Below, one piece after another: positions 4,654 to 39,104 of a stretch of 45,520 bases of DNA. The notes under the pieces are model-generated. The model was given only the letters and a program-made list of their open reading frames with translations, was not told the DNA's origin and searched no databases. This DNA is from Candidatus Magasanikiibacteriota bacterium (lineage in GTDB: Bacteria; Patescibacteriota; Patescibacteriia; Magasanikbacterales; UBA10003), in the NCBI GenBank assembly GCA_016214465.1, contig JACROI010000021.1, positions 1 to 45,520 on the forward strand, in the 5' to 3' direction. Every line of letters begins with the position of its first letter. The stretch's first letter is position 1. The position numbers and the translations under genes are program-made.

Positions 4654-6945
4654 ATGGATACATTTACCGCTAGATTACTCAATGGCATTACCAAATTCGG
4701 CCTGTATTTGACTGTTTTTTTAATTCCCATATTTTATCTGCCTTTTACCGATGAAAAATTGGAATTAAATAAATATTTTTTACTTTATTTTTTGATTTTT
4801 GTTTCTCTGTTGTGCTGGCTCGGAAGGTCGTTGATAAAAAAAAGTTTTGAAATCAGGCGCACGCCATTGGATATTCCATTACTCGCCATTTGGTTTTTAT
4901 ATTTTTTGACCGCCCTGCTTTCGCAAGATAAATTTTTAAGTTTTTTCGGCGATTTTAGCTTTTTGGGCTTGTCTTTTTTCGGTCTGACTGTTTTTGCAGT
5001 TTTTTATTTTTTAATCGTTCAAAATTTATTAAAAATCAGTCAAATCTTGGGTGCGGTGTATTTATTTTTGTTCGGCGGAACTTTAAGCGCGGCGTATTGG
5101 TTGCTTTTTACCTTTAAATTATTTGATTGGCCGAGTTTTTTGCCGAAATTCAATCTAGTTAATGGTTCCAACACTTTGTTTGGCGTGTATTTGGCCGTGA
5201 TTTTTGTAATGTATTTAGCTTTTTTAACTGTTAAAAAACGAGAATTGGTTTTGGATGTTTTTTTCTTGTTATGCGCTTTAATAAATTTAGTCGCTTTGGT
5301 TGTTTTGGGTTTTAAATTGATTTGGATTATCACGGCCGCGGCCATATTCTTAATGTTGGTTTTTTTCTTGACTTACGCTGAAAAAGTGCGCACCGTGTGG
5401 ATTTCAATCGCTTTTACGATTTTTGTCATTTCTTTGTTGTTTATATTCTTGGGCGTGCCCAAGTTTTTAACCGCTAATTTGCCTTTGGAGGTTTCTTTAT
5501 CATCAAATATTTCTTGGCAGATTGCCACGGACACTATTACAGCCGGAGCAAAGAATTTTCTTTTTGGCACCGGTCCCGGTACTTTTTTGTTTGATTTTTC
5601 CCAGTTTCGGCCAACTGAATTTAATAATAATTTTGCCTGGAATATCCGTTTTCGCCAGTCATACAACAGTGCGTTTGATTGGTTGATGACCACCGGTCTT
5701 TTGGGTGCCTTGGCTATTCTTTTTTTGATTTTAATGGTATTGGGGTTGATTGTTAGCACCTGGCTAAAACATTTGTCGGAATTGCGCGGCAAGAAAAAAA
5801 CATCGGACACGGAAGAACAGACCGTGGTTGGATTTTTTTATAAATCACCTTTGATTTTTTGGGGATTGGTTGGGTCGTGGCTTACTCTTTTAATCGCTTT
5901 TTTCTTAATGAGTTTTGGTTCGGCTCATTGGTTGGCATTTTGGCTGTTATTGGGATTAATCGTTAGCGCAAGCGCTCATCTGTCTAAAGCGGAATTACCA
6001 ACTTGGAGATTTTCTTTAAAAACCACGCCGCAATACGCCTTGGTTACCTCTTTTGGATTTATTTTAATTTTTACGGCCATTATCGTGGTTGGAATTTATT
6101 TTGGCCGGTATTTTACCGCCGAAGTGATTTTTGTTAAGGCGTTGAATAAGCCGCTGGATCAAAAAATCAGTGATTTAAGTAAAGTAGTTGAATGGAGTCC
6201 GCATCGCGTGCTGTTTCAATTAATTTTGGCTGACACATTTTTGAACAAAGCCGGAGAAATCGCCAATAAAACCAATGATGTAAATCAAGTGGCTCCTTTG
6301 GTGTCCTCGGCTGTGCAAGCGGCCAAAAACGCCACTGACCAATCACCCAATAATGTGGCTACCTGGGAATACCTTTCTAATATGTACGGGAGCGCGCGAG
6401 CTTTCGCTCCCGAAGCCAACAATTGGACCATAGGCGCTTTGGAAAAGGCGTTGGCTTTGGAGCCAACCAATCCGACTTTTTATGTGGCTTTGGGTAATGC
6501 CAAATTATTGGAAAAACGCTACACTGAAGCCAAAGAGGACTATGATAAAGCTATTGCTTTGAAGCCAAATTTACTAATGGCTTATGTGAGGTTGGCTTTT
6601 ATGGAAGAAATGAAGAATAATATAAGTGGCAGTATCGCGGTTTTAGAAAAAGGTTTGAATTATGGAATCCAAGATCCGGGTTATGTTTTTCAGTTGGGCA
6701 GATATTATTTCAATCGTGCGCAAAAAGGCGATTACACTTTGGCCGAAGCGGCGTTTAGAAAAGCCATTATTTTACAGCCAAATTATTCCGATGCCATATT
6801 TTCTCTCGGCCTTTTATACGAGAAAACCGGCAACACTAGCGTAGCCTTGGAAATGTACAGAAAAGTTTTGGATTTGAATCCTGGGAATCTTGATATTAAG
6901 AAGAAAATCAATGCGTTAAGCGGCGGCGGTGAAGATAAGAAATAG
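4654..6945 (+). CDS. O-antigen ligase (Wzy_C)-like polytopic membrane protein fused to C-terminal TPR repeats
   Basis: More than 10 hydrophobic helices. QSYNSAFDWLMTTGLLG resembles the HN..L..L.E.G..G ligase motif. The C-terminal ~250 aa are TPR-like (ALALEPTNPTFYVALGNA, AIALKPNLLMAYVRLA, AIILQPNYSDAIFSLGLLY, VLDLNPGN). Confidence 0.7.
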   Translation: MDTFTARLLNGITKFGLYLTVFLIPIFYLPFTDEKLELNKYFLLYFLIFVSLLCWLGRSLIKKSFEIRRTPLDIPLLAIWFLYFLTALLSQDKFLSFFGDFSFLGLSFFGLTVFAVFYFLIVQNLLKISQILGAVYLFLFGGTLSAAYWLLFTFKLFDWPSFLPKFNLVNGSNTLFGVYLAVIFVMYLAFLTVKKRELVLDVFFLLCALINLVALVVLGFKLIWIITAAAIFLMLVFFLTYAEKVRTVWISIAFTIFVISLLFIFLGVPKFLTANLPLEVSLSSNISWQIATDTITAGAKNFLFGTGPGTFLFDFSQFRPTEFNNNFAWNIRFRQSYNSAFDWLMTTGLLGALAILFLILMVLGLIVSTWLKHLSELRGKKKTSDTEEQTVVGFFYKSPLIFWGLVGSWLTLLIAFFLMSFGSAHWLAFWLLLGLIVSASAHLSKAELPTWRFSLKTTPQYALVTSFGFILIFTAIIVVGIYFGRYFTAEVIFVKALNKPLDQKISDLSKVVEWSPHRVLFQLILADTFLNKAGEIANKTNDVNQVAPLVSSAVQAAKNATDQSPNNVATWEYLSNMYGSARAFAPEANNWTIGALEKALALEPTNPTFYVALGNAKLLEKRYTEAKEDYDKAIALKPNLLMAYVRLAFMEEMKNNISGSIAVLEKGLNYGIQDPGYVFQLGRYYFNRAQKGDYTLAEAAFRKAIILQPNYSDAIFSLGLLYEKTGNTSVALEMYRKVLDLNPGNLDIKKKINALSGGGEDKK

Positions 6946-17785: not shown

Positions 17786-17855
17786 GAGAAGCGCCTATAT
17801 CTTTTTTGCAGTCGCGGCGATAGTCCGCAGCAAAAAAAAGATATAGGCGCTTCTC
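17786..17855 (+). repeat. H-family 70-nt hairpin element (copy 1)
   Basis: Stem gagaagcgcctatatc pairs with gatataggcgcttctc. It encloses the conserved core ttttttgcagtcgcggcgatagtccgcagcaaaaaaaa. The left flank is attttatag, as in copy 2. Confidence 0.8.
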
Positions 17856-21248: not shown

Positions 21249-21255
21249 ATGTTTA

Positions 21256-21405
21256 GCAGGCTCGGCAGATTATTTTTTTAGCTAGGATAAACTCGCCTGG
21301 CCTTTCAGGCCACCGGACTCGGCGTTCTCTACCTTAGCCATCGCAGAACGCCTCGTCCTGGCTCAAACATATCCTAGCTTCAAAAAATTATCTGCCTCCG
21401 CCTGC
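21256..21405. repeat. SE-family ~150-nt GC-rich structured palindromic element (copy 1)
   Basis: A long outer stem (gcaggc..ggcagat..agctaggata with tatcctagct..atctgcc..gcctgc) encloses hairpins ggcc-tttca-ggcc and ggcgttct-N16-agaacgcc. About 90% identical to the reverse complement of 37305-37455. Confidence 0.8.
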
Positions 21406-21412
21406 TTTAAAT

Positions 21413-22229: not shown

Positions 22230-23654
22230 TTAATTTTTAGCCAATGGTTCGGCTGGCGGAGCGATTGCAATGGGGGAGCCGAGTGCGTGCAATTCCAGCG
22301 CTGGTTGTGCGACAGTGATAATATTCGTCCAATTTAATCCAAGAGTATTGAATGTCGCTTCATCGGCAATAGGTCGGCGTTCAGCATTGGAAATCAAGAA
22401 AATTTCCGGCGAGTCGGCAATTTTAAGTAAGGCGCCGTCATTAAATTTAATCGGTTCGCCATCAGAATATTTTTTTAGCTCCGTGGCTGCGGCCAATCGC
22501 GCTTTTTTATTTGGCCAATTTGTTTGCGCGATTTTTTTATCCAAAATCGCGTGTTTGATACTGTTTTCCACAAAAAATAATTCTTTGGTTTTTGAATTTT
22601 GCATCAATGCGCCCAAAGGAAATTTTTTGTCTTTAACAATCGGCTCGCCCAAAGTATAGACAGCCAGTTCTTCATCGCTGACTTTGACAACTTCATCAGG
22701 ATCAAAACCAAAATAGCGGAAAGCGGTTTTGTCAATCATGCGTCGAACACTCCCTGACAGCAAGTAAATTTCTCCAGCCGGATTTTTGAGTAATGAAAAA
22801 TCAGGATATTTTATTTTTGCGCCGACTTCATATTGTTCCAATAAATCAGCAATGGTTATCAAAACTTCATTGGCTTTCCAGCGAGAATTAAATGCGGCCG
22901 TGGATAGTGGATATCTTCGTCCATTTTTTATCAGCCAGATTTGTGAATCATCGCTGGCGCGAACAATCACGCCATCAGGAAAAATTTGCGTTCCGCCAAA
23001 CCATCTCTGCCAAATTTTCCAAAAATTGTAATTTCCACGAAAATGCGGAGTGTAGGTGTAAAGCAAGGCTGTGGCGCGATTGGCCGGAATCACGGGAATG
23101 GAATCAATGCTATAAAGCAAGCCGGGTTTTTTCAGCCAGATCTCGGGCGGATTGTCCAGAAAATAGCGGAAAGAAGCGGCGGCGGAATCAATTTGTTTGA
23201 CCAGTCCTTTGAATTTGATAATTGACGGATCATTTTGGTCGCAAGCGTCACAGCGAGCATAGCCGGTAGCCCAATCAAAATTGTATTGACTGGGAGTGGA
23301 ATTTTCAATCAAGCTTTGTTCTTTTTGCAATAACACCAATAGCACGCGCGGATTGATTTGATAATTTTGCGCTGCTTGAAAAATTATCTCCGTGGCTGTT
23401 TTATTCAGTCCTGTGGCAGGGTCAATTATTTCGTAATTGGACAAGGCACCGGATTTGTTTTTCAAAAAGGCCGCGATGTCTTCGTGGCTCATCGTATTGG
23501 CATTGGTCAATTCATCATCAGTGATAATCATGTTGGGATTAAAGTCAGGATCAACCGCGCTGTCCATAGCCGGAATTTGCGCCAAAGCAGGTGAGGCGAA
23601 TAAAACAAAATTAGCTAAAAATGCCCAAATTATAGTTTTTTTGGATGTGGTCAT
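22230..23654 (-). CDS. Secreted protein with a putative cell-wall-hydrolase-like N-domain and repeated C-terminal modules
   Basis: Signal peptide IIWAFLANFVLFASPALAQ. NPRVLLVLLQKEQSLIEN resembles a motif I recall from peptidoglycan-hydrolase-associated domains. Confidence 0.5.
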   Translation of the reverse strand: MTTSKKTIIWAFLANFVLFASPALAQIPAMDSAVDPDFNPNMIITDDELTNANTMSHEDIAAFLKNKSGALSNYEIIDPATGLNKTATEIIFQAAQNYQINPRVLLVLLQKEQSLIENSTPSQYNFDWATGYARCDACDQNDPSIIKFKGLVKQIDSAAASFRYFLDNPPEIWLKKPGLLYSIDSIPVIPANRATALLYTYTPHFRGNYNFWKIWQRWFGGTQIFPDGVIVRASDDSQIWLIKNGRRYPLSTAAFNSRWKANEVLITIADLLEQYEVGAKIKYPDFSLLKNPAGEIYLLSGSVRRMIDKTAFRYFGFDPDEVVKVSDEELAVYTLGEPIVKDKKFPLGALMQNSKTKELFFVENSIKHAILDKKIAQTNWPNKKARLAAATELKKYSDGEPIKFNDGALLKIADSPEIFLISNAERRPIADEATFNTLGLNWTNIITVAQPALELHALGSPIAIAPPAEPLAKN

Positions 23655-23695: not shown

Positions 23696-23813
23696 AGACC
23701 GTCCAACAACTCGTTTTTTGTCATTGCGAGCGAAGCGAAGCAATCTCTTTTGGCTTAAAACGAGATTGCTTCGTCGCTTCGCTCCTCGCAATGACAGTTG
23801 TTGGACAGTCTGG
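23696..23813. repeat. 118-bp composite palindromic element (copy 1), in the spacer between two minus-strand genes
   Basis: Outer inverted repeat: gaccgtccaacaact with agttgttggacagtc. Inner P-family arms: tgtcattgcgagcgaagcgaagcaatctc and gagattgcttcgtcgcttcgctcctcgcaatgaca. Identical over 118 nt to 38987-39104. Confidence 0.9.
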
Positions 23814-23824
23814 GTTTGATTATT

Positions 23825-24343
23825 TTATTCTCTAATCGGCATTATTTTTTTTCTCGCCATCCAATATCTCACTCCTTCATAGCACCCAAATAACACGGCC
23901 ACATAAAAAATATCACCCAAAAGCATATTGCGCCAGAATGGAATGGCGGCGATGTAGCTGGCTAAAAGTCCGTCGCTTGTAAATGGATAGAGTGTGCCAA
24001 ACTGCCAAACCGCCAAATTAGTCACTAGAAAAAAAATAGTTGAGCTGGCCAGAGTGGCGCCAAAAGTGGTGACGACTCCGCGGTGTTTGCCTAGCCACCA
24101 GCCCAAGAAACCGGACACGGCAAAGCTCCCGTACACGGAAATCATAATTGGCGCGCTGTAAAAGCCGATGAATAAATCACTCAAAAACATGGCGGCCATT
24201 GGCAGAAGAATGCTCAATCTTTTGTTTAAATAAACGCCGGAAAAAAGCGCCACGGCGGCAATAGGCGTGAAATTGGCCGGATGCGGCAGAAACCGCGCCG
24301 CAATGGCCAGAAGCACGAGAAAATATGGAAAGAATTTTTGCAT
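23825..24343 (-). CDS. Small ~6-TM membrane protein, last gene of the riboswitch-controlled operon (candidate corrinoid transporter or S-component)
   Basis: 172 aa and almost entirely hydrophobic. LPHPANFTPIAAVALFSGVYL. The start lies 2 nt after the stop of the upstream gene. Confidence 0.6.
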   Translation of the reverse strand: MQKFFPYFLVLLAIAARFLPHPANFTPIAAVALFSGVYLNKRLSILLPMAAMFLSDLFIGFYSAPIMISVYGSFAVSGFLGWWLGKHRGVVTTFGATLASSTIFFLVTNLAVWQFGTLYPFTSDGLLASYIAAIPFWRNMLLGDIFYVAVLFGCYEGVRYWMARKKIMPIRE

Positions 24344-24345
24344 AT

Positions 24346-26634
24346 TTAGATAAATGTTAATAATAATCTTCCAAATAAAAATATGGTGGCTCCGGCAAAC
24401 AGAATCGCGCTACCGGTGGCAGTGGTTGTGGCGACTTTTTTCTCCAGAGGGGCGATGGGCGATGGTGTTTCAGGAGGACTGTTAGTGATGTTTGCCATGG
24501 CTGGAGTTTCCGGTTGGCTTATTATTGTAGATTGCGCGGGTGCTGTCGGCGTGGGAGAAAGTTTTAATGGTTTAATTATATCAGGAACGGAACTTGAAGG
24601 CAAGGCGTTTTTTACAATTTCCTCTGCTGATGAAGTTGGCGTCAGCGCGATTATTTCAATCGGTTCTGAAATAACAGGCAAGGTTGACGATGTCATTGCC
24701 AGAGTAGAAGTCGCGGTAATTGGCAAAGTTGATGTGGCAGTTGAAGATGCTGTTTCAATAGGGGTAGATAAAATACTGCCCACACTCCCACCCACGCCGC
24801 CAGAATTCGCTGGAGCAGGTGTTGGTTGCGGTTTTGGAGTTAAAATTATCGGCCACGATTTTCCCAGTAACGCAGGCACGGCGTGTTTTGTGCCAAACCA
24901 ATCAACTATGCCCGGTGCCCAAGCCGACTCGTAATAACCGTCGGTTTTTAATTGCTCGGTCAAAACCGACCATGGATTCTTGTTTTGACTGTTAGTCCAA
25001 TCAGTTTGTCCTTCATTTAAAGAATTTACGCCCATCATGGCCCAGCCTGTGGTAAGCGGGTCAGAAACGCCAAAGCCCCAGCCGCCGTCAGCTAGTTGTT
25101 GTGATTTTAAATAGGCCTTGGCTTTGGTAAAGATATTTTGGTCAATTGTCGCGCCTTTATTTTTGGCATATTGCAGAGCGTTCACAGCCGCGCCGGTAAT
25201 ATCAGCTGAAGCCCAGCCGGCCCAAGTAAAAGCGCCGTCCGCGGTTTGGTCTGCAATAATTGTGGCCAAAATATCATTGGCAATCAATTCGTTCGCCGGC
25301 GTATCAGTCGCAAGTAAAGCGAAGAGCGCAAAAACATCATCATTAATTCCATTCAATCCGTATTTGTTGTTTTTATAGCACTCTGCGCTTTTGATTTTTG
25401 AGATTAAATTTTGGACGGTGTTATCCGAGCCGGCCATGCCCGAAGCAAGAAATGCCAAAGTATGCCGTGGATAACTGGCGCATAGATTTAGCAAATCGCT
25501 TTCATCAGTAAAATTATATCCTTTGGCAAAATTTAATAATGATGTACTGCTGGCGGCGATTTCGTCGGCGTATTGATTATTGGCGCCAAAAGACATTATT
25601 GCCCAGTCGGTAATACTGGCATCAATTATTTTTCCATCCGCGCTTTGTTGTGTTTTTAAAAAATTAAGAATTGATTGGGTTTTGGCCGCGATATCCGCTG
25701 ATGAAATTGTCGGAGTGGGAGTTAATGAACCACCGCCTCCGCCACCACCTGTATTGGTGTCGGTTTCAGGTGTGCTCGTGGCCGTGGAGGTTGGAGTTTC
25801 AGGAGCCGGGAGCACTGTGAGAGTTATGGGCCAGCTCCATTTGGAATAATCTGTCGAGGTGATTTTTGCAAAATAGGTGCCAGTGGCGGAAAAAGCGTAT
25901 TCAACAGTGCCAGAGGCATTGGTGGCGAGGGTTGTTGTGGTGATAGTCGTGTCCCACCAGCCAGTTTGGTTTGGATTGGGGATGCTGATGTCAACAGTGT
26001 CATTGCGGTCAAGTGTCCATTCATCGTCCAGATTGTCGTAATTGTATCGCCAAGTTTGCAAAGTGGTGGTAGTGTTTATTGGAAAAGTACTGGTAGTTGC
26101 GGTGATTTTCCAAGAATCGTCAAAGTAAATGTAAACAGTGTCGTTATTTTGCAAACCGTATGAATCCATGCCGATGCTTGGGTATGATCCATTAACAGAA
26201 TAATTCCAATTGCCGCAGGCCGAAGTGCTCGTTGGCGCGGTAATGACAAGGCAGTTAAGGTAGAAACTTTGATAGGCGTCGTAGTAATCAAGTTGGGAGA
26301 TTGAAAAATTGTCCGAAAGCGCGTCAGCCTCTGTTAGAATTGTGAGCGGGCTGGATGAGGCGTTGACAGAGTGGCTTCCGGCAGTGTCCATAAGTGAGCT
26401 GGTGGCAGTGGAGGTTACTGCGCCGGAAAACAGAAAAGAATCTTGGTAGCGGAGAAAAAAGTTGATAGAGAGGCCCGGTGTACTCGTGGCAGTTGAAGTT
26501 GCTATTTCTTGTGTCGGGATTGTAATTTCAGGCGTGCTGGTAGTTTCTTCGGCCTGAACCGGTCTGGCGGAGAAGAATATTAAGACAATTGTCATTCCAA
26601 TGAAAATTGGAATCTTAAAATTTCGCATTTTCAT
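24346..26634 (-). CDS. Surface-anchored multidomain protein: signal peptide, DUF4430-like domain, beta-rich module, prenyltransferase/terpene-cyclase-like alpha/alpha toroid, Pro/Thr stalk, C-terminal TM anchor
   Basis: Signal peptide IFIGMTIVLIFFSARPVQA. DUF4430 signature ACGNWNYSVNGSYPSIGMDSYGLQNNDTVYIYF. A Gly7 linker. Toroid repeats QQSADGKI, DQTADGAFTW, QQLADGGWGF. C-terminal anchor GSAILFAGATIFLFGRLLLTFI. Confidence 0.7.
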   Translation of the reverse strand: MKMRNFKIPIFIGMTIVLIFFSARPVQAEETTSTPEITIPTQEIATSTATSTPGLSINFFLRYQDSFLFSGAVTSTATSSLMDTAGSHSVNASSSPLTILTEADALSDNFSISQLDYYDAYQSFYLNCLVITAPTSTSACGNWNYSVNGSYPSIGMDSYGLQNNDTVYIYFDDSWKITATTSTFPINTTTTLQTWRYNYDNLDDEWTLDRNDTVDISIPNPNQTGWWDTTITTTTLATNASGTVEYAFSATGTYFAKITSTDYSKWSWPITLTVLPAPETPTSTATSTPETDTNTGGGGGGGSLTPTPTISSADIAAKTQSILNFLKTQQSADGKIIDASITDWAIMSFGANNQYADEIAASSTSLLNFAKGYNFTDESDLLNLCASYPRHTLAFLASGMAGSDNTVQNLISKIKSAECYKNNKYGLNGINDDVFALFALLATDTPANELIANDILATIIADQTADGAFTWAGWASADITGAAVNALQYAKNKGATIDQNIFTKAKAYLKSQQLADGGWGFGVSDPLTTGWAMMGVNSLNEGQTDWTNSQNKNPWSVLTEQLKTDGYYESAWAPGIVDWFGTKHAVPALLGKSWPIILTPKPQPTPAPANSGGVGGSVGSILSTPIETASSTATSTLPITATSTLAMTSSTLPVISEPIEIIALTPTSSAEEIVKNALPSSSVPDIIKPLKLSPTPTAPAQSTIISQPETPAMANITNSPPETPSPIAPLEKKVATTTATGSAILFAGATIFLFGRLLLTFI
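26590..26614. repeat. Short hairpin with P-family-like termini at the junction of two operon genes
   Basis: tgtcattccaatgaaaattggaatc has the same TGTCATTCC-hairpin-GGAATC frame as 27262-27287. It encodes part of the signal peptide (KIPIFIGMT). Confidence 0.45.
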
Positions 26635-27253
26635 AGCGCCAAGTGATTATATCGTTATGATTAAGTTTAATGTAGGAGACGCCTAATTTGGCCGCTTGAC
26701 CATTGATGTAGTAAATCCAGTAAAGATTTGATTTGGAATCGTTGGTTAAGTTGTCAATCGTTTCCACAAACGCGCCCAAGCTACTGAATTGGGAGAATTT
26801 AATGGGGATTTGCTCTTGCAGTTGTTGCATGGCTTCGTAAACTGTGCTTTGTGGTGCAACTTTGATTGGAAATTCTTTATTGAACGTGGGCGCGATGAAT
26901 TTGAAAGTGACAGAGATACTATTTTCATCAGGTTTTTCAATTGGTGTTACATTGGAAATTGCGTCAGCCACAAAAGAAGTCGCGGAAATTGGTTGTTTAT
27001 TTTTTTCAGAGTCATTGCGAGGCGCAGCCGAAGCAATCTCGTTTTTATCATCCCGAGCGGAGCGAAGGATATTTTGCGAAATTGTCCCAGTAGCAAAAGA
27101 ATCCGTGGATTTCATCTCCGCTGTTTTTGTTGATGTGTTTTGAATCGTCTGTTTATCCAGATTATTCAGCCAAATCATACTCCAAATCAAAAGCAGGCCG
27201 GACAGCGCCCATAGGCCAAAGTGGTGGGTATGTTTTTTAACAAAATGTTTCAT
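26615..27253 (-). CDS. Membrane-anchored DUF4430 (transcobalamin beta-domain-like) protein, first gene after the riboswitch
   Basis: Start chosen at ATG 27253 (MKHFVKK...); the track start at 27292 is a TTG inside a repeat hairpin. TM anchor FGLWALSGLLLIWSMIWL. C-terminus SNLYWIYYINGQAAKLGVSYIKLNHNDIITWRYE. Confidence 0.7.
   Translation of the reverse strand: MKHFVKKHTHHFGLWALSGLLLIWSMIWLNNLDKQTIQNTSTKTAEMKSTDSFATGTISQNILRSARDDKNEIASAAPRNDSEKNKQPISATSFVADAISNVTPIEKPDENSISVTFKFIAPTFNKEFPIKVAPQSTVYEAMQQLQEQIPIKFSQFSSLGAFVETIDNLTNDSKSNLYWIYYINGQAAKLGVSYIKLNHNDIITWRYENAKF
27011..27071. repeat. Two tandem P-family arms inserted in frame in the DUF4430 gene (encode SARDDKNEIASAAPRNDS on the minus strand)
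   Basis: gtcattgcgaggcgcagccgaagcaatctcg followed by tcatcccgagcggagcgaaggata. Confidence 0.7.
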
Positions 27254-27261
27254 AGTTTTTT

Positions 27262-27287
27262 TGTCATTCCCGCGAAAGCGGGAATCC
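27262..27287. repeat. P-family-related short hairpin in the 5' UTR of the operon
   Basis: tgtcattcccgcgaaagcgggaatcc, with stem attcccgc / gcgggaat. Confidence 0.6.
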
Positions 27288-27300
27288 AGCAATATATTTA

Positions 27301-27333
27301 AAAACTCTTTTCCGGCAAAAAGAAAAGAGTTGT
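27301..27333 (-). terminator. Intrinsic terminator forming the riboswitch expression platform
   Basis: Minus-strand RNA AACUCUUUUC-uuuuugccg-GAAAAGAGUU followed by UUAAAU. Confidence 0.6.
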
Positions 27334-27367
27334 CCTTTTCTCCTGCTCGGGAGTTGGTGTATGTGGA

Positions 27368-27464
27368 TAACTTTTAAACAAAGTTCCGGCTGGCCCCTGT
27401 GTGTGGGGGTTCACGGTTGCGGCACAGTGGGGGATTTGCGCCCCTCTTCCATGCTTAAAAGTTA
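27368..27464 (-). promoter_or_regulatory. Cobalamin riboswitch aptamer (compact, class-II-like)
   Basis: Minus-strand RNA: UAACUUUUAAGCAUGGAAGAGGGGCGCAAAUCCCCCACUGUGCCGCAACCGUGAACCCCCACACACAGGGGCCAGCCGGAACUUUGUUUAAAAGUUA. It has a GGAAG + GGGG-CGCAAAU-CCCC hairpin, a C.G..CCGC.AC.GU.A junction, a B12-box-like GCCAGCCGGAAC and a 10-bp P1. Confidence 0.75.
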
Positions 27465-27492
27465 GGTGTGGATAAGTTTTAATGGTGATTTT

Positions 27493-27565: not shown

Positions 27566-28885
27566 ATGGTAATTTTAGGAATAAAAATTGACAATTTTTC
27601 AAAATCGGAAATTTTAGCTAAAATTAGCGAATTTTTGCGTTTGGGTGCCGGACATTTTATTACCACTCCAAATCCGGAAATGCTGGTTGATGTGGAATAT
27701 GATTGGTTTTTCAAGCAGGCCTTGAATAAGGCGGAAATGGCAGTGGCAGATGGGTTTGGTTTGCCTCTTGCAGCGCGATATTTATATGGCGAAAAACTAA
27801 CTCGTTGGGCCGGTATTGATTTGATGGAGAAAATTTGTGAAATTGCCGCCGAGCAGAAAAAAAGCGTGTATTTGATTGGCGGAAAAGAGGGGATTGCGGC
27901 CAAAGCGGCCGAAAAATTGCAAAAAAAATTTTTTGGGTTGAAAGTTGTTGGAGCGGAGAGTGGGATTGTGTTTGAATGTCATCCCGAGCGAAGCGAGGGA
28001 TCTTTGCATACCAATATTCTCAAAGATTCTTCGCCACGTTTGGACTGGGCTCAGAATGACAACGGCGAGTATCTTACAGGTTTAAATTTTAATGTTGCTG
28101 AGAATAATAAATTATTGGAACGCATCCGCGCCGCTACTCCAGATATTCTTTTTGTGGCTTTTGGTCATGGCAAACAGGAAAAATGGTTGGCGGAATTTTT
28201 ATCACAATTGCCATTAGTAAAAATTGGCATGGGAGTGGGCGGGGCTTTTGATTATATTTCCGGCCAAGTTTTGCGCGCGCCGAAATTTGTGCGTCAGCTC
28301 GGATTTGAATGGTTGTGGCGTTTGTTGAATCAGCCATGGCGGATAAAACGAATTTGGAAAGCAGTTGTGTCTTTTGGTTTGTTGGTGAAAGATTACAAAA
28401 TACAAATTGCCATGCCTTATCGCCAAGGAGTAATCGGATTTATTGTAAATAGGGAAGGAAAATTTTTTATCGCCAAACGTTGTCCAATGCCAACTGATTC
28501 ATATTTTTTTAATATTGAGCACTGGCAGCCGCCGCAAGGTGGAATCAGCGTTGACGAAACGGCCGAACAGGCGATTTTGAAAGAAGTGCGAGAGGAAACC
28601 GGAATGACAGCCGAGATTGTGGCGCGTTGTGTTGATGTTTGTAAATATGACTGGAGTATTGCCTTTATGAAGAAGAAAGGCAAGGGTTATCATTTCAGGG
28701 GTCAACAAAAATCAGTTTTTCTGCTAAAATACAATGGTGACGGCAGTGACATCAAAGTGGATAAAATTGAGCTGTGCGGTTACCGTTGGGTGGATTTGGA
28801 AGAACTGAAAAAAATAATTCATCCGATGCGCCGGCCGTCTTTAGAAATTTTATTAAATGAAATTAAATTTCGAGATATTTTATAG
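27566..28885 (+). CDS. WecG/TagA/CpsF-family (GT26) glycosyltransferase fused in frame to an RppH-like Nudix hydrolase
   Basis: N-terminal ILGIKIDNFSKSEILAKI, TPNPEMLV, IGGKEGIA, PDILFVAFGHGKQEKW, APKF....GFEWLWRL..P.R. From M283 (28412): YRQGVIGFIV, WQPPQGGISVDETAEQAILKEVREETGM (Nudix box). Confidence 0.75.
   Translation: MVILGIKIDNFSKSEILAKISEFLRLGAGHFITTPNPEMLVDVEYDWFFKQALNKAEMAVADGFGLPLAARYLYGEKLTRWAGIDLMEKICEIAAEQKKSVYLIGGKEGIAAKAAEKLQKKFFGLKVVGAESGIVFECHPERSEGSLHTNILKDSSPRLDWAQNDNGEYLTGLNFNVAENNKLLERIRAATPDILFVAFGHGKQEKWLAEFLSQLPLVKIGMGVGGAFDYISGQVLRAPKFVRQLGFEWLWRLLNQPWRIKRIWKAVVSFGLLVKDYKIQIAMPYRQGVIGFIVNREGKFFIAKRCPMPTDSYFFNIEHWQPPQGGISVDETAEQAILKEVREETGMTAEIVARCVDVCKYDWSIAFMKKKGKGYHFRGQQKSVFLLKYNGDGSDIKVDKIELCGYRWVDLEELKKIIHPMRRPSLEILLNEIKFRDIL
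27977..28061 (+). repeat. P-family element (two arms plus spacer) inserted in frame in the GT26 domain (encodes CHPERSEGSLHTNILKDSSPRLDWAQNDN)
   Basis: Arms tgtcatcccgagcgaagcgagggatc (27977-28002) and gattcttcgccacgtttggactgggctcagaatgaca (28025-28061). Confidence 0.75.
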
Positions 28886-28954
28886 GGACGTTCTAATTTC
28901 TTTTTTGCAGTCGTGGCGACAGTCCGCAGCAAGAAAAAGAAATTGGAACGTCCC
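28885..28954 (+). repeat. H-family 70-nt hairpin element (copy 2)
   Basis: Stem gggacgttctaatttc pairs with gaaattggaacgtccc and encloses ttttttgcagtcgtggcgacagtccgcagcaagaaaaa. The left flank is attttatag. Confidence 0.8.
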
Positions 28955-28962
28955 AACCTGAT

Positions 28963-30459
28963 ATGCCCAAAAATAAAAAAGCTTGTCCCCGAACGCTATC
29001 GGGGATTCGCGTTCGTTTTGCGCCATCGCCGACCGGCTTTTTGCATGTTGGCAGTTTACGCACCGCGCTTTATAATTATTTGTTCGCTCGGCAAAATAAT
29101 GGCGATTTTATTTTACGCATTGAAGATACTGACCGCACGCGCTATGTTGAGGGCGCGGTGGAAAGTTTATTGAAAATTTTAACTACTGTTGGATTGAGAT
29201 GGGACGAGGGGCCGATGCTAGATGGCAAAGAAAAAGGCAAGTTCGGCCCGTATGTGCAATCAGAAAGAACAAAAATTTATAAAAAACATGCCGAGGAATT
29301 GATTGAAAAAGGCCATGCTTATCATTGTTTTTGTTCAGCCGATCGATTGGAAAAATTGCGCGAAACACAGCAAGCGAATAAATTACCAACTATGTATGAT
29401 GGTCTGTGTCGCGGGCTGGACAAATCAATTATTGCTGAAAAATTAAAAAACAATCAACCGCATGTCATACGACTAGCTGTGCCCAAAGAGGGGAGTACAA
29501 ATTTTAACGATGTAGTCCGCGGCGCGGCGGCGTTTGAAAATAAATTGATTGATGATCAGGTACTTGTAAAATCCGATGGTTTCCCAACTTATCATTTGGC
29601 CAATGTCGTGGATGATCATTTAATGGAAATAACCGATGTAATTCGCGGGGATGAATGGCTTTCTTCAACTCCAAAACACATTTTATTATATAAGGCCTTT
29701 GGCTGGACACCACCGCGATTCGCGCACATTCCATTGCTTTTAAATCCTGATAAATCCAAATTATCCAAGCGGCAAGGCGATGTGGCCGTGGAGGACTACT
29801 TGAAAAAAGGATATTTGCCCGAGGTACTGATAAATTTTGTGGCTTTGTTGGGCTGGAATCCTGGCACGGAACAAGAAATTTTTTCTTTGCCGGAATTGAT
29901 CAAGGTGTTTGATATTACCAAAGTGCACCAAGCCGGCGCGGTTTTTAATTTGGAAAAACTGGATTGGATGAACTGTGAATACATTAAGAAAATGCCATTG
30001 AATGAATTGGTAAAAATTTGTCAGCCATTTTTGGTTGGCGCCTGTTTGGAAGTTGCCGGACAAAAATTAGAAAATATTATCGGTTTGGAAAGAGAACGAT
30101 TGAAAAAATTAATTGATTTTCCGGCCGCGGTGGAATTTTTTTTCAAAGAGCCGCGATACGACGCCAAGATTTTGATTTGGAAAAAAAGCGATCAAAAAAC
30201 GATTTGCAGTCGTTTAAAAACCTTGATTAAATTTTACGACACATTCACATGGGATTGGTCAGAGCAGTGGATAGAACAGGCAACTTTGGATTTAATTATC
30301 AAAGAAAAATTGGAAAATGGGACAACTCTTTGGCCGATGCGCGTGGCTTTGTCCGGCCGCGAGGCCTCGCCAGGGCCGTTTGCCATTGCCGAAATTTTAG
30401 GGAAAGAGGAAACAATCAAACGGTTGAAAGCAGCCTTAGCTCTGTTATGCGGAAAATAG
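28963..30459 (+). CDS. gltX: Glutamate--tRNA ligase
   Basis: RVRFAPSPTGFLHVGSLRTALYNYLFAR, ILRIEDTD, KLSKRQG. Confidence 0.9.
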   Translation: MPKNKKACPRTLSGIRVRFAPSPTGFLHVGSLRTALYNYLFARQNNGDFILRIEDTDRTRYVEGAVESLLKILTTVGLRWDEGPMLDGKEKGKFGPYVQSERTKIYKKHAEELIEKGHAYHCFCSADRLEKLRETQQANKLPTMYDGLCRGLDKSIIAEKLKNNQPHVIRLAVPKEGSTNFNDVVRGAAAFENKLIDDQVLVKSDGFPTYHLANVVDDHLMEITDVIRGDEWLSSTPKHILLYKAFGWTPPRFAHIPLLLNPDKSKLSKRQGDVAVEDYLKKGYLPEVLINFVALLGWNPGTEQEIFSLPELIKVFDITKVHQAGAVFNLEKLDWMNCEYIKKMPLNELVKICQPFLVGACLEVAGQKLENIIGLERERLKKLIDFPAAVEFFFKEPRYDAKILIWKKSDQKTICSRLKTLIKFYDTFTWDWSEQWIEQATLDLIIKEKLENGTTLWPMRVALSGREASPGPFAIAEILGKEETIKRLKAALALLCGK

Positions 30460-32083: not shown

Positions 32084-33022
32084 ATGAATACTCTACCGCT
32101 GAAAGAAGAATTTTTATTAAATATTCAAATCAACAACTACTCCCCCGAAACGGTTTATAATTATGAACGAGATTTGTCAGTGTTCGAAGATTTTTTGAAT
32201 TCGGAAATTAAAACAGATTTTAGGAAAGTCACAAAGAAAGATTTGCTTTTATATAAGGCCTACCTAGCTTCAATCGATCGTCTCACTCCACTGCGACAGA
32301 AAGGCAATAAACGATTATCCAGTTTTTCGCTAAACCATGCTCTTTCCGCTCTGCGATCATATTTGAAATTTTTAATTGATATGGATTTTGTTTCACCAAT
32401 CGCTCCCAACTCCGTCACTTTAATTAAAACTGAGCGTCGCCATACTCAGATCGCGGAAATGCCCGAATTTATAAAATTAATTGAATTTCCAACTAAAATT
32501 GAAAAAAATAAAATTATTGGTTTGCGCAATCGGGCTATGTTAGAAACATTATTTGCCACCGGCATGCGCATTTCCGAACTCCTGTCTTTAAAAAGATCGC
32601 AAATTGATCATACTGGCAGGATATTTATTACTGGCAAGGGTAAAAAACAACGGTTTGTTTACTTAACCCCTCGCGCCATGTGGATTATTAAAGAATATTT
32701 AAAAACTCGCAAGGATACATTTGCCGCTCTTTTTGTGCCTTACCGCGGTAGAAACAGCGGAGAGAAAGATAAACACATTTCGTGTAATTATTTGCAATAT
32801 AAGATTAAAAAATATCGTGAGTTGCTTAAAATTAATCTGCCTGTTAGTGCTCATTCTTTGCGGCATGCCTTTGCGACTTATTTAGCGGAAGAAGGGGCGA
32901 ATCCGGCAGCTTTGCAACATTTGTTGGGGCATGAATCACTGACAACCACAACGCGTTATGTGCATGCTTCTGATCGATACGCGGAGGAAACACATCGGAA
33001 ATTTCATCCGTTAAAAGATTAA
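32084..33022 (+). CDS. Tyrosine site-specific recombinase (XerC/XerD-like integrase)
   Basis: NRAMLETLFATGMRISEL, HSLRHAFATYLAEEGANPAALQHLLGHESLTTTTRYVH. Confidence 0.85.
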   Translation: MNTLPLKEEFLLNIQINNYSPETVYNYERDLSVFEDFLNSEIKTDFRKVTKKDLLLYKAYLASIDRLTPLRQKGNKRLSSFSLNHALSALRSYLKFLIDMDFVSPIAPNSVTLIKTERRHTQIAEMPEFIKLIEFPTKIEKNKIIGLRNRAMLETLFATGMRISELLSLKRSQIDHTGRIFITGKGKKQRFVYLTPRAMWIIKEYLKTRKDTFAALFVPYRGRNSGEKDKHISCNYLQYKIKKYRELLKINLPVSAHSLRHAFATYLAEEGANPAALQHLLGHESLTTTTRYVHASDRYAEETHRKFHPLKD

Positions 33023-33028
33023 TTTTTT

Positions 33029-33583
33029 ATGGAGCTACAAGAGTTGATTGATACTTTTTATTCTAATTATAATGCCAGTATTGATTATGAGGCATTAGAG
33101 AATATTTGCCAGTCGATGTCCGATGGGTATTTAAAAGTAATCAAGATCGAGATTTGTTCTTTGAATGTATTTCAAAACACGCTGGATAAAGTTTTGAACG
33201 GCAAAACCCCCATTTTTGAATATGATGGCGGGGGCAAGAAACACATTGCTCTTAAGATAGCCGCCGGCAAATATATTTTAAAAAAATTTGGTCAAAAATG
33301 CGATTACGAAGAGAATTATTGCGGCCAGCGACCCGATGTTATTTCTAAAGATAAAGATATTATTTTTGAATGTGGCGATACTGATCCAAGAAAAATTTTG
33401 GAATATCTTGGAGAAAATGAAAATTTAAAAATTTTTGTGATGCCATATCACCGTATTGAAGATGGCAAATTAATCTGCGGCTTTCTTTTTATAAAAAATA
33501 AAAACGGTTTAGCCACCAATTTATATAAAAGAAAAATTGATTCTTTAGCCGATGTGAGAAAAATTATTGCTTCGCGGAAATAA
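33029..33583 (+). CDS. Hypothetical protein (184 aa), with a weak PD-(D/E)xK-nuclease-like pattern
   Basis: Starts 6 nt after the recombinase stop. RPDVISKDKDIIFECGDT loosely resembles a D...E.K nuclease core, but the Lys is absent. Confidence 0.4.
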   Translation: MELQELIDTFYSNYNASIDYEALENICQSMSDGYLKVIKIEICSLNVFQNTLDKVLNGKTPIFEYDGGGKKHIALKIAAGKYILKKFGQKCDYEENYCGQRPDVISKDKDIIFECGDTDPRKILEYLGENENLKIFVMPYHRIEDGKLICGFLFIKNKNGLATNLYKRKIDSLADVRKIIASRK

Positions 33584-36910: not shown

Positions 36911-37319
36911 ATTTTGATGATTTATATTTTTTCGGCTGAAATGATTTTAATTTTATAATCTTAATTTTTAATCCCCACTCCACTATTTGCCGTTTTAATT
37001 TTTTAATGAAAAATTTTTGATCATAGCCAAGGCAAATAATGTCAGGTTTTATTTTCTTAATAATTTTAAAATAATCTTTTTTATCTCCTAAAAATACTTT
37101 ATCCACCCAGCCGGTCTGGCGCAGATTTTTTTGCCGCTGTTCGGCCGTAAAATATGGCGCGTGTTTTTTAAGTTTTTCAACTGTGCTGTCGCGGGCAATC
37201 ACAGCGATGACTGTCTCCCCGTAGCGGCGCGCTTGCTGAAACAGCGACTGATGACCAGGATGAAGAATATCAAATGTTCCGAAGAGTAGGATTGTTAGAT
37301 TTGAGGCAGGCGGAGGCAT
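36888..37319 (-). CDS. Cytidylyltransferase-family nucleotidyltransferase (HxGH motif; TagD/RibL-like)
   Basis: Start chosen at ATG 37319 (MPPPASNLTILLFGTFDILHPGH). The first six codons lie inside the SE element arm. Confidence 0.65.
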   Translation of the reverse strand: MPPPASNLTILLFGTFDILHPGHQSLFQQARRYGETVIAVIARDSTVEKLKKHAPYFTAEQRQKNLRQTGWVDKVFLGDKKDYFKIIKKIKPDIICLGYDQKFFIKKLKRQIVEWGLKIKIIKLKSFQPKKYKSSKYVGYKIH

Positions 37320-37455
37320 ATAATTTTTGAATGAGGATATGTTTGAGCCAGGACGAGGCATTCTGCGATGGCTAAGGCCGTGAATGCCGAGTCCGGTGGC
37401 CTGAAAGGCCAGGCGAGTTTATCCGAGTGAAAAAAATTTATATGCCGAGCCTGCC
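37305..37455. repeat. SE-family ~150-nt structured element (copy 2, inverted relative to copy 1)
   Basis: Its reverse complement matches 21256-21405 with compensatory differences in two stems. Its arms supply the last 6 codons and stop of lysS, and the ATG plus 5 codons of the downstream gene. Confidence 0.8.
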
Positions 37456-38955: not shown

Positions 38956-38986
38956 AGAAAATGATTTGTTAGCTTGTCATTGCGAC

Positions 38987-39104
38987 AGACCGTCCAACAA
39001 CTCGTTTTTTGTCATTGCGAGCGAAGCGAAGCAATCTCTTTTGGCTTAAAACGAGATTGCTTCGTCGCTTCGCTCCTCGCAATGACAGTTGTTGGACAGT
39101 CTGG
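38987..39104. repeat. 118-bp composite palindromic element (copy 2), nested inside a short P-type hairpin
   Basis: 100% identical to 23696-23813. Flanked by tgtcattgcga (38975-38985) and ggcaatctcg (39106-39115). Confidence 0.9.

Follow-up and report, generated by a model that had tools for sequence, protein, structure and literature searches.

Background

What kind of sequence occurs twice, in nearly identical and strongly folded form, within one contig of a bacterium with a tiny genome? The contig is JACROI010000021.1 of assembly GCA_016214465.1 (Candidatus Magasanikiibacteriota bacterium), of which positions 1 to 45,520 were analysed (referred to here as the window), and the two sequences, each about 150 nt long, lie at 21256–21405 and, as a reverse complement, at 37305–37455. 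The organism belongs to the candidate phyla radiation (CPR) or Patescibacteria, whose tiny and gene-dense genomes are usually considered to be poor in mobile DNA. No description of MITE-like repeats (MITE, miniature inverted-repeat transposable element) in this group was found in the literature that was searched, and this absence is limited to that literature.

The original prediction, made from the letters of the window alone, had suggested that an orientation-independent MITE-like element would fit the two sequences at least as well as a classical small RNA. Four outcomes had been named beforehand as checks, namely extra copies, covariation in a larger alignment, a match in Rfam, and presence/absence polymorphism among relatives. 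The copies, the covariation, the lack of an Rfam match and the polymorphism described below all agree with the suggestion. Our analysis indicates that the two sequences are probably copies of a lineage-specific, non-autonomous, structured and palindromic MITE-like repeat, which is a new family of a known kind of bacterial repeat.

Two copies of one element

The two copies are located as follows, the F orientation being that of copy 1 on the plus strand:

21256..21405, plus strand: copy 1, in F orientation, GCAGGCTCGGCA...TGCCTCCGCCTGC; covariance-model score 177 bits
37305..37455, minus strand: copy 2, in F orientation on the minus strand; covariance-model score 165 bits

In a global alignment the elements are identical at 135 of 153 positions (88%), and the mean column identity is 90% once short flanks are added, in line with the roughly 90% originally predicted for 21256–21405 and the reverse complement of 37305–37455. 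The window contains a 28-nt core exactly two times, where shuffled sequences lead one to expect 0 occurrences. Both copies had also been described as GC-rich islands in AT-rich spacers. The first part of this description is correct (52% G+C in the elements vs 42% in the whole window), the second needs qualification, as spacers barely exist apart from the element: copy 1 is set off from the coding sequence on either side by just 7–8 nt of unique DNA, and copy 2 overlaps both of its neighbouring genes.

The flanking genes of both copies all lie on the minus strand, so that the opposite orientation of the two copies relative to transcription, which had been noted before, holds. The F strand of copy 1 is antisense to its flanking genes, whose mRNA would carry the reverse complement, whereas the F strand of copy 2 is sense with its flanking genes. 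The element is 150–161 bp long, its arms carry stop codons in all frames, and it contains no conserved open reading frame (ORF).

Fold and covariation

On either strand, both copies fold into an imperfect outer stem of about 35 bp that encloses two hairpins and thus ends in a Y-shaped tip, as the original prediction had drawn it. The folding z-scores of the two strands are −10.5 and −9.5 for copy 1 and −6.2 and −7.1 for copy 2, and shuffled sequences never fold as well. The parts of copy 1 are:

21256..21289, plus strand: outer stem, 5' arm, GCAGGC-TC-GGCAGAT-T-ATTTTTT-T-AGCTAGGATA
21298..21312, plus strand: hairpin 1, TGGCC-TTTCA-GGCCA
21315..21358, plus strand: hairpin 2, with P4 GGAC/GTCC, a 2x2 internal loop TC/CT, P5 GGCGTTCT/AGAACGCC and a 16-nt apical loop
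21370..21405, plus strand: outer stem, 3' arm, TATCCTAGCT..AAAAAAT.ATCTGCC-TCC-GCCTGC

The apical loop of hairpin 2 contains CCTTAGCCAT (21332–21341). Two compensatory double changes between the copies had been reported, and both were recovered at exactly the positions given for them. The inner stem reads GGCGTTC (21321–21327)/GAACGCC (21346–21352) in copy 1 and GGCATTC (37357–37363)/GAATGCC (37382–37388) in copy 2, and the outer stem reads GGCAGAT (21264–21270)/ATCTGCC (21390–21396) and GGCATAT (37315–37321)/ATATGCC (37440–37446), respectively.

The selection on structure that had been deduced from these two changes is supported by strong covariation in a larger alignment, which comprises 13 distinct copies and 43 pairs and thus 559 cells. 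Standard pairs are found in 97.5% of the cells, and 19 of the 43 pairs show double changes, compared to 8.1 ± 1.7 in column shuffles (0 of 500 shuffles reached 19) and to only 1–3 pairs in controls with a slid register. All helices covary, including the outermost six pairs, for which GCAGGC/GCCTGC, GCGGGC/GCCCGC, ACGAGC/GCTCGT, GTGGGC/GCCCAC, GCAAGC/GCTTGC and GCAGGT/ACCTGC were observed. Apart from Watson-Crick pairs, the cells comprise merely 4 G:U, 10 A:C and 4 other mismatches. Since the pairing is almost purely Watson-Crick, the fold is possible on both strands. The asymmetric internal loops TC/TCC and TC/CT as well as the 5x7 junction are retained in every copy, and three other copies bear CCCCGAC-loop-GTCGGGG, a longer hairpin with no relation to hairpin 1 (GGCC-TTTCA-GGCC), in the place of the latter.

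The unpaired parts have to be read with more care. Three segments (GGATAAACTCGCC, CCTTAGCCAT and GGCTCAAACATATCC) were fixed by the search patterns, and their invariance in the alignment is partly given by construction. Outside of these segments 66% of the unpaired columns are variable vs 54% of the paired ones, and the general claim that the loops are more conserved than the stems was rejected on these grounds. In contigs from four metagenomes, which are independent of the patterns, variants with a frequency of at least 10% are absent within 21333–21341 (CTTAGCCAT) and from the 3' junction. The better folding of the reverse-complement strand was likewise rejected as evidence for a functional strand: its energy is lower in 13 of 13 copies, but shuffles of this strand are lower by the same amount of about 8 kcal/mol, and the advantage is therefore an effect of composition.

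Distribution and copy number

Searches with patterns and with the covariance model provided the further copies that had been hoped for, bringing the number of distinct copies to 13–15, all of which belong to a single narrow clade within Ca. Magasanikbacteria (CPR). When 185,579 species-representative genomes were scanned with patterns, only two matched, UBA10142 with 7 copies and the metagenome-assembled genome (MAG) CAYIOJ01 with 4 copies. The LysS protein of the window is 91–92% identical to those of the same two MAGs, Ca. Magasanikbacteria UBA10142 (DOQH01) and CAYIOJ01. A pattern scan of metagenomes yielded extra copies on groundwater contigs (retrieved contigs are given by L numbers in the following), and the window and its relatives stem from groundwater metagenomes as well, L040 being a contig from Hainich groundwater. 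A covariance model built on the 13 distinct copies recovered one further, partly decayed copy; the scores of the copies range from 141 to 184 bits.

CAYIOJ01 (contigs L001, L027, L030 and L032) is titled 'uncultured Gammaproteobacteria bacterium'. Given a LysS identity of 91% and the shared CPR-specific repeat, this label is almost certainly wrong and the genome belongs to the same clade as the window organism.

The covariance model detected no copy in the stretches fetched from more distant relatives, i.e. L003–L008 and L023 (45–61% LysS identity) and L049–L055 (71–89% LigB identity), and no match to the element was found in viral contigs, phage records or plasmid records. The exact 28-nt core found no match in the species-representative genomes, because the P4 stem covaries. 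A pattern for the termini yielded one true copy plus a chance match (L026), and the metagenome pattern gave chance matches on L038 and L042.

The depth of contigs placed on copy 1 is 23–60 times as high over the element as over the unique flanks (4 groundwater runs from 3 studies). It goes up at 21255/6 and down at 21406/7, and in the four metagenomes many different sequences adjoin both ends. Two copies in 45.5 kb together with this excess in depth lead to a rough estimate of tens of copies per genome of about 1 Mb, the depth being a sum over all carriers in each community.

Breaks and runs of N in assemblies coincide exactly with the repeat (L001 at 5494–5530, L029 at about 4625, Logan contigs L048 and L049–L055), and many contigs from related genomes are just 1–3 kb long. 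The repeat thus fragments these MAGs systematically, and its copies are undercounted in them.

Polymorphism and insertion sites

The last of the four checks, polymorphism among relatives, was positive at two loci. The lysS site is empty in UBA10142 (L002), where it reads ...LKPER* TAG AAT ATG, followed by MRVLLFGTFD, and is filled in the window, in CAYIOJ01 (L001, with an N-gap in the assembly) and on the Hainich contig L040. The spacer between the LigB/Memo-like gene and a 90-aa ORF is empty in five lineages (L049, L050/51, L052, L053 and L055), in which it measures 5–11 nt or the genes overlap. The window and UBA10142 (L028) both carry the element in this spacer, but oriented oppositely. It begins 7 nt after the stop codon in the window vs 2 nt in UBA10142, and the asymmetric bulges of the outermost arms are also inverted between copy 1 and L028. 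The inverted bulges and the shifted insertion point argue for separate insertions, or for excision and re-insertion, instead of an internal flip. Recombination between the arms, which would have inverted the element in situ, was rejected for this pair on the same grounds. At another locus two species carry different subfamilies of the element (L027 and L034). Among the tiny spacers that are occupied repeatedly, variants and orientations differ, and even another family of hairpins is found.

Two observations concern the same kind of spacer. Between a WecG/NUDIX gene and gltX the window contains an imperfect palindrome of about 110 nt at 28863–28976 (GGGACGTTC.AATTTCTTTTT...AAAAAGAAATT.GAACGTCCC), exactly where UBA10142 has the 150-nt element (L031, 2836–2986), so that one spacer holds different hairpin elements in sister genomes. 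On L054 the short spacer or 150-nt element found elsewhere after the LigB stop codon is replaced by 52 nt of unrelated sequence that extend from the stop codon to the contig end (3310–3361), which may be yet another insertion at this spacer.

A target-site duplication had been suspected at copy 1 from the following feature:

21252..21255, plus strand: TTTA left of copy 1, repeated right of copy 1 at 21406–21409; possible 4-bp target-site duplication

The unique spacer around copy 1 amounts to 7+7 = 14 nt vs 10 nt in the empty site of L049, which, together with the repeated TTTA, fits a 4-bp target duplication at this copy. At the lysS site the filled and the empty form differ in length by 0–2 nt. 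The TTTA on both sides of copy 1 is real, but a duplication is not consistently seen at the other copies, and the idea is still a hint.

By size and coding capacity the element falls among the MITEs (150–161 bp in a class of less than about 600 bp, non-coding). It has the expected terminal inverted repeats in the form of imperfect arms of about 35 bp that pair in all copies, with covariation of the outermost 6 bp, and its multiple copies are dispersed and differ in presence between relatives. A number of points nevertheless weigh against its interpretation as a MITE-like repeat. No consistent direct repeat or flanking motif is found at the other 13 copies. Neither in the 45-kb window nor adjacent to any of the copies is there a gene for a transposase, a reverse transcriptase or an HUH enzyme, and a longer, autonomous element that shares the ends of the repeat was not seen either. 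The outermost 6 bp are variable and covary, unlike what is expected of a DDE transposase that binds fixed terminal repeats. The repeated occupation of the same spacers could reflect site-specific targeting instead of random insertion and selection. Finally, most copies were found with patterns that fix three conserved segments, by which the sampling is skewed towards close relatives. Classical DDE cut-and-paste transposition is less attractive in view of the covarying ends and the equivocal duplication. The sole recombinase gene in the window codes for a XerC/D-like tyrosine recombinase (32084–33022, plus strand).

Comparison with known repeat and RNA families

The element had been described as unlike any known RNA family, and it found no match in Rfam 15 at the gathering threshold when the whole window was scanned. 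A permissive scan of copy 1 gave nothing relevant either, the best match being RtT with 20.9 bits against a cutoff of 45 (E = 0.066). A scan for tRNA and tmRNA found none. Resemblances to a hammerhead-like core, a K-turn, an SRP-like RNA and to IHF or DnaA boxes were rejected on inspection by eye.

The closest analogue is bcr1 of the Bacillus cereus group (group A repeats; Okstad 2004, Klevan 2007 and Kristoffersen 2011, via PMC3184786, PMC6542083 and PMC3446304). It is described as a transcribed repeat of about 155 bp with 5-bp direct repeats and a cruciform-like fold, whose two stem-loops are maintained by compensatory changes (PMC3184786), and as frequent in untranslated regions (UTRs) and in intergenic regions of operons (PMC3446304). 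Both repeats measure about 150–155 bp, are non-coding and reach tens of copies (39 on average for bcr1). Both are confined to one narrow lineage with a distribution that differs between close relatives, and in both a long stem and two independent stem-loops are kept by compensatory changes. Both are situated in UTRs or operon spacers, a transposase is not known for either of them, and the AT-rich target TTTAT of bcr1 resembles the TTTA at copy 1. In contrast, bcr1 is reported to be flanked by a 5-bp direct repeat 'in each case', while the element has no consistent one, and its transcription has been demonstrated experimentally, while that of the element is only inferred. In addition, the hosts differ (B. 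cereus group vs a CPR phylum). A blastn search against plasmids, including B. cereus plasmids that bear bcr1, gave no match. Although the element resembles bcr1 in the way it works, membership in bcr1 was rejected because of the CPR host and the missing match in the plasmid collection.

The Correia or NEMIS repeats of Neisseria are 100–157 bp long, have long terminal inverted repeats and are co-transcribed with genes, with RNase III cleaving at the paired repeats (PMC10969869). They are gene-adjacent and would form a long hairpin in the mRNA like the element, and cleavage by RNase III is a plausible model for the latter by analogy. In Correia elements the terminal repeats of 26 bp are conserved, and there are outward promoters, a TA duplication and an IHF site. 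In contrast, the terminal bases of the element covary, it has no TA duplication, copy 1 shows no promoter-like site and the core is branched. Membership was rejected for the variable terminal bases, the missing TA duplication and the absence of a promoter-like site in copy 1. The ERIC or IRU sequences of Enterobacteriaceae, imperfect palindromes of about 127 bp, occur in transcribed spacers in both orientations and influence mRNA stability depending on their orientation (PMC10969869). They differ from the element in their TA-flanked ends and their fold, and the sequences are unrelated. The Rickettsia palindromic elements (about 105–150 bp) occur in a small, reduced genome and are fused in frame with host genes (PMC10969869). 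Copy 2, which extends LysS by six residues and gives the following gene a new N-terminus, is reminiscent of these. The Rickettsia elements are, however, typically located inside ORFs and encode a conserved peptide, whereas the element is found at junctions in 14 of 14 cases, with coding use at one locus.

The REP/BIME-RAYT and PATE systems share with the element a stem structure that is kept over sequence. They lack a target duplication, of which no consistent one is seen for the element, and their mobility would proceed via folded single-stranded DNA, which for the element is a possibility. REP sequences are simple hairpins of 20–40 nt with a conserved 5' tetranucleotide, whereas the element has 150 nt, is branched and lacks a flanking tetranucleotide. 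REP/BIME membership was rejected on this basis, and no RAYT was found in the window or beside the copies. In PATEs the subterminal hairpins of the left and right ends differ from each other, and insertion takes place 3' of a fixed tetra- or pentanucleotide. As the ends of the element pair with each other, and no fixed motif adjoins it on either side in either orientation, membership in the PATEs of IS200/IS605 type was rejected as well. The same applies to integron attC sites, since the ends read GCAGGC/GCCTGC and not RYYYAAC/GTTRRRY, both orientations occur, and the flanks are syntenic housekeeping genes. Finally, the template and variable repeats of diversity-generating retroelements were discarded, as the differences are of all types and compensatory, and no reverse transcriptase is encoded in the window.

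Gene context and proposed co-option

Copy 1 is flanked by the LigB/Memo-like gene and the 90-aa ORF, followed by def and fmt. Copy 2 is located between lysS and a cytidylyltransferase-like gene, after which come serS, alr and ftsQ. All 14 of 14 copies reside at junctions of housekeeping genes, in either orientation; these junctions include prfA|prmC, lysS|cytidylyltransferase, LigB|..def-fmt, positions upstream of mreB, of a Mur ligase family gene and of gltX, and a position between genes for surface proteins. The upstream stop codon typically lies 0–17 nt from the element or inside of it, and the next start codon 5–23 nt away (36–55 nt at L027, L034 and the second copy of L029/L035). No sigma-70-like promoter was found inside copy 1, and the 3' flank in the sense direction contains no U-tract. 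The short distance to the start codon and the lack of a promoter in copy 1 suggest that the element is read through in a polycistronic mRNA, and it is most likely co-transcribed as part of operon mRNAs.

Counted by insertion event, the reverse complement is the sense strand 8 times and the F strand 4 times, which is not significant. At 9 of 11 informative loci it is the reverse-complement strand that coincides with the G-rich strand of the flanks. This is suggestive of a replication-related bias but not significant (two-sided binomial, about 0.07), and the copies of the window are the exceptions. In the window the cumulative GC skew increases up to about 31 kb, stays level between 32 and 40 kb and declines beyond 41 kb, and genes converge at 33583/33592, near the XerC/D-like gene. 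The replication terminus (dif region) may lie within the window.

At copy 2 the element appears to have been put to use by its neighbours:

37438..37440, minus strand: lysS stop codon, inside the 5' arm of copy 2
37317..37319, minus strand: ATG of the element, in the 3' arm of copy 2; its frame is that of the cytidylyltransferase-like gene (MPPPASNLTILLFGTFD...)

LysS ends with ...KPE-SGRLGI* at the filled site, and its last six residues (SGRLGI) are encoded by the element. The ancestral ATG of the cytidylyltransferase-like gene, which is seen in the empty site, is lost at the filled site. The ATG at 37317–37319 is created by the 'ATAT' variant of the arm (GGCATAT/ATATGCC), and its frame is kept in three genomes (window, L001 and L040) with 3 synonymous and 2 non-synonymous differences. 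Judged from these sequences, copy 2 would have been domesticated, with lysS taking its stop codon, and the gene downstream a new start codon in the proper frame, from the element.

Alternative explanations

The mobility of the element is not disputed by all alternatives. It might be mobilised as folded single-stranded DNA by a structure-specific enzyme, either of the HUH/Y1 type, as in IS200/IS605 with PATE and in REP-RAYT, or a tyrosine recombinase, as on attC, with the fold being selected at the DNA level. This explanation, which is a rival with regard to the mechanism only, seems rather unlikely to us. The near-pure Watson-Crick pairing, the persistence of the asymmetric bulges (TC vs TCC) in all copies, the covariation instead of conservation of the outermost bases and the inconsistent target-site duplication are in line with it. 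The preference of the reverse-complement strand for the G-rich strand would hint at a link with the direction of replication, and a gene for a tyrosine recombinase is present in the window. However, neither a Y1/HUH transposase nor a RAYT is found among the genes of the window or those flanking the copies, and the tetra- or pentanucleotide that IS200/IS605 requires at one end is not conserved. Furthermore, the strand bias is not significant, the flanks are syntenic housekeeping genes and not integron cassettes, and the Xer-like gene most simply represents the housekeeping dif recombinase. A functional structured RNA, on the other hand, either a cis-regulatory or processing module or a trans-acting small RNA with the reverse complement 5'-GCAGGCGGAGGCA...UGCCGAGCCUGC-3' as its active strand, would account for the copies by function instead of selfish spread. 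It would agree with the covariation in all helices and the variable hairpin that replaces hairpin 1 in some copies, and with an apical loop (CCUUAGCCAU; AUGGCUAAGG on the other strand) and 3' junction that are invariant in the pattern-independent contigs. Of 12 insertion events, 8 have the reverse-complement strand in sense, and this strand contains more wobble pairs (10 vs 4) and shows purine-rich motifs in its conserved internal loops (GA/GA and GGA/GA). We nevertheless regard this explanation as unlikely: the F strand is in sense at the 4 other events including copy 2, so that 8 vs 4 is not significant, and the lower energy of the reverse complement is compositional. Moreover, the same loci are empty in close relatives with no visible compensation, the flanking genes have no common functional theme, no promoter or terminator of its own was found, and no known RNA family was matched. 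Neither the counts of orientation nor those of wobble pairs lend support to a dedicated function of one strand as RNA.

The compensatory changes themselves could be mechanical and unselected, produced by template switching in quasi-palindromes or by gene conversion between arms or copies of a neutral palindromic insertion. Nearly all pairs are Watson-Crick with very few G:U intermediates, in line with this, and there is sharing within a genome: copies 1 and 2 have GGAC/GTCC and CATCGC in common, which are missing from L040 at the locus of copy 2 and thus point to exchange between copies. Template switching should, however, erase loops, and TC/TCC, TC/CT and the 5x7 junction are kept in all copies. 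In addition, hairpin 1 has been replaced outright by an unrelated hairpin of other length at the same position, and the arms of the outer stem are 80–140 nt apart, which is far for intrastrand switching. The persisting bulges, the hairpin swap and the distance of the arms argue that the fold is selected and not a product of template switching, and a mechanical origin is distinctly improbable. That the element is an assembly artefact, or that two spacers are alike by chance, can practically be dismissed. Although assemblies break or carry N-gaps at the element (L001, L029) and Logan contigs end inside of it, intact copies with unique flanks are found in independent assemblies from at least three studies with several assemblers, and covariance-model scores of 141–184 bits refute chance similarity.

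Proposed mechanism

We therefore return to the MITE-like repeat, in which copies that fold on themselves would be those that are tolerated, with a compact rod keeping the stop codon and the next start codon close to each other. The fold, as single-stranded DNA or RNA, may be recognised by some trans-acting enzyme for mobility, which would explain why the outermost bases covary and are not conserved. As no U-tract is present in the sense direction, the element should not terminate transcription. It may instead serve as an RNase III or stability site, as in the Correia and ERIC elements.

A more far-reaching and rather doubtful proposal is that the CPR harbour a structure-guided mobile element of a kind not described before, whose functional unit would be the branched fold itself. 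A non-DDE enzyme would then recognise the folded single strand and the element would home to stop-start junctions, where the RNA, a rod plus a Y, would act as an 'insulator' or processing site inside essential operons of a genome of about 1 Mb. The repeated occupation of spacers would in this case reflect targeting and not survivorship.

Other features of the window

A second palindromic family is represented by two copies of about 118 nt at 23696–23813 and 38986–39103 (plus strand), which are 100% identical (AGACCGTCCAACAACT...GTCATTGCGAGCGAAGCGAAGCAATCTC...AGTTGTTGGACAGTCTGG). They are intergenic and fold into one long rod each, with a z of about −10 for either strand, and in Rfam they gave generic sub-threshold matches to miRNA hairpins only. 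A perfect 22-bp inverted repeat with a 26-nt loop (17786–17855, GAGAAGCGCCTATATCTTTTTT/AAAAAAGATATAGGCGCTTCTC) between genes for polysaccharide biosynthesis and a glycosyltransferase looks like a bidirectional terminator or another hairpin element.

An AdoCbl (B12) riboswitch is located at 27330–27477 on the minus strand (54 bits, cutoff 50). The genes downstream of it on the same strand (26615–27292, 24346–26634 and 23825–24343) code for two DUF4430 proteins and one DUF6580 protein and are probably an operon for cobalamin uptake or binding. ORFs that found no match in Pfam are those of 787 aa (18–2381), 825 aa (2155–4632, only a sub-threshold match to Peptidase_G2), 474 aa (22230–23654, syntenic in relatives) and 184 aa (33029–33583, adjoining the recombinase gene).

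Conclusions

For the Ca. Magasanikbacteria the finding means that a selfish repeat can reach, by rough estimate, tens of copies lodged between the stop and start codons of genes in essential operons, and that such a repeat can be co-opted to supply stop and start codons. In practical terms it fragments short-read assemblies, leaving contig ends and N-gaps at the element, and it can mislead gene callers at the ends of genes, while offering a marker for strain typing. In addition, it provides a compact natural test case for the tolerance of stable hairpins inside polycistronic mRNAs.

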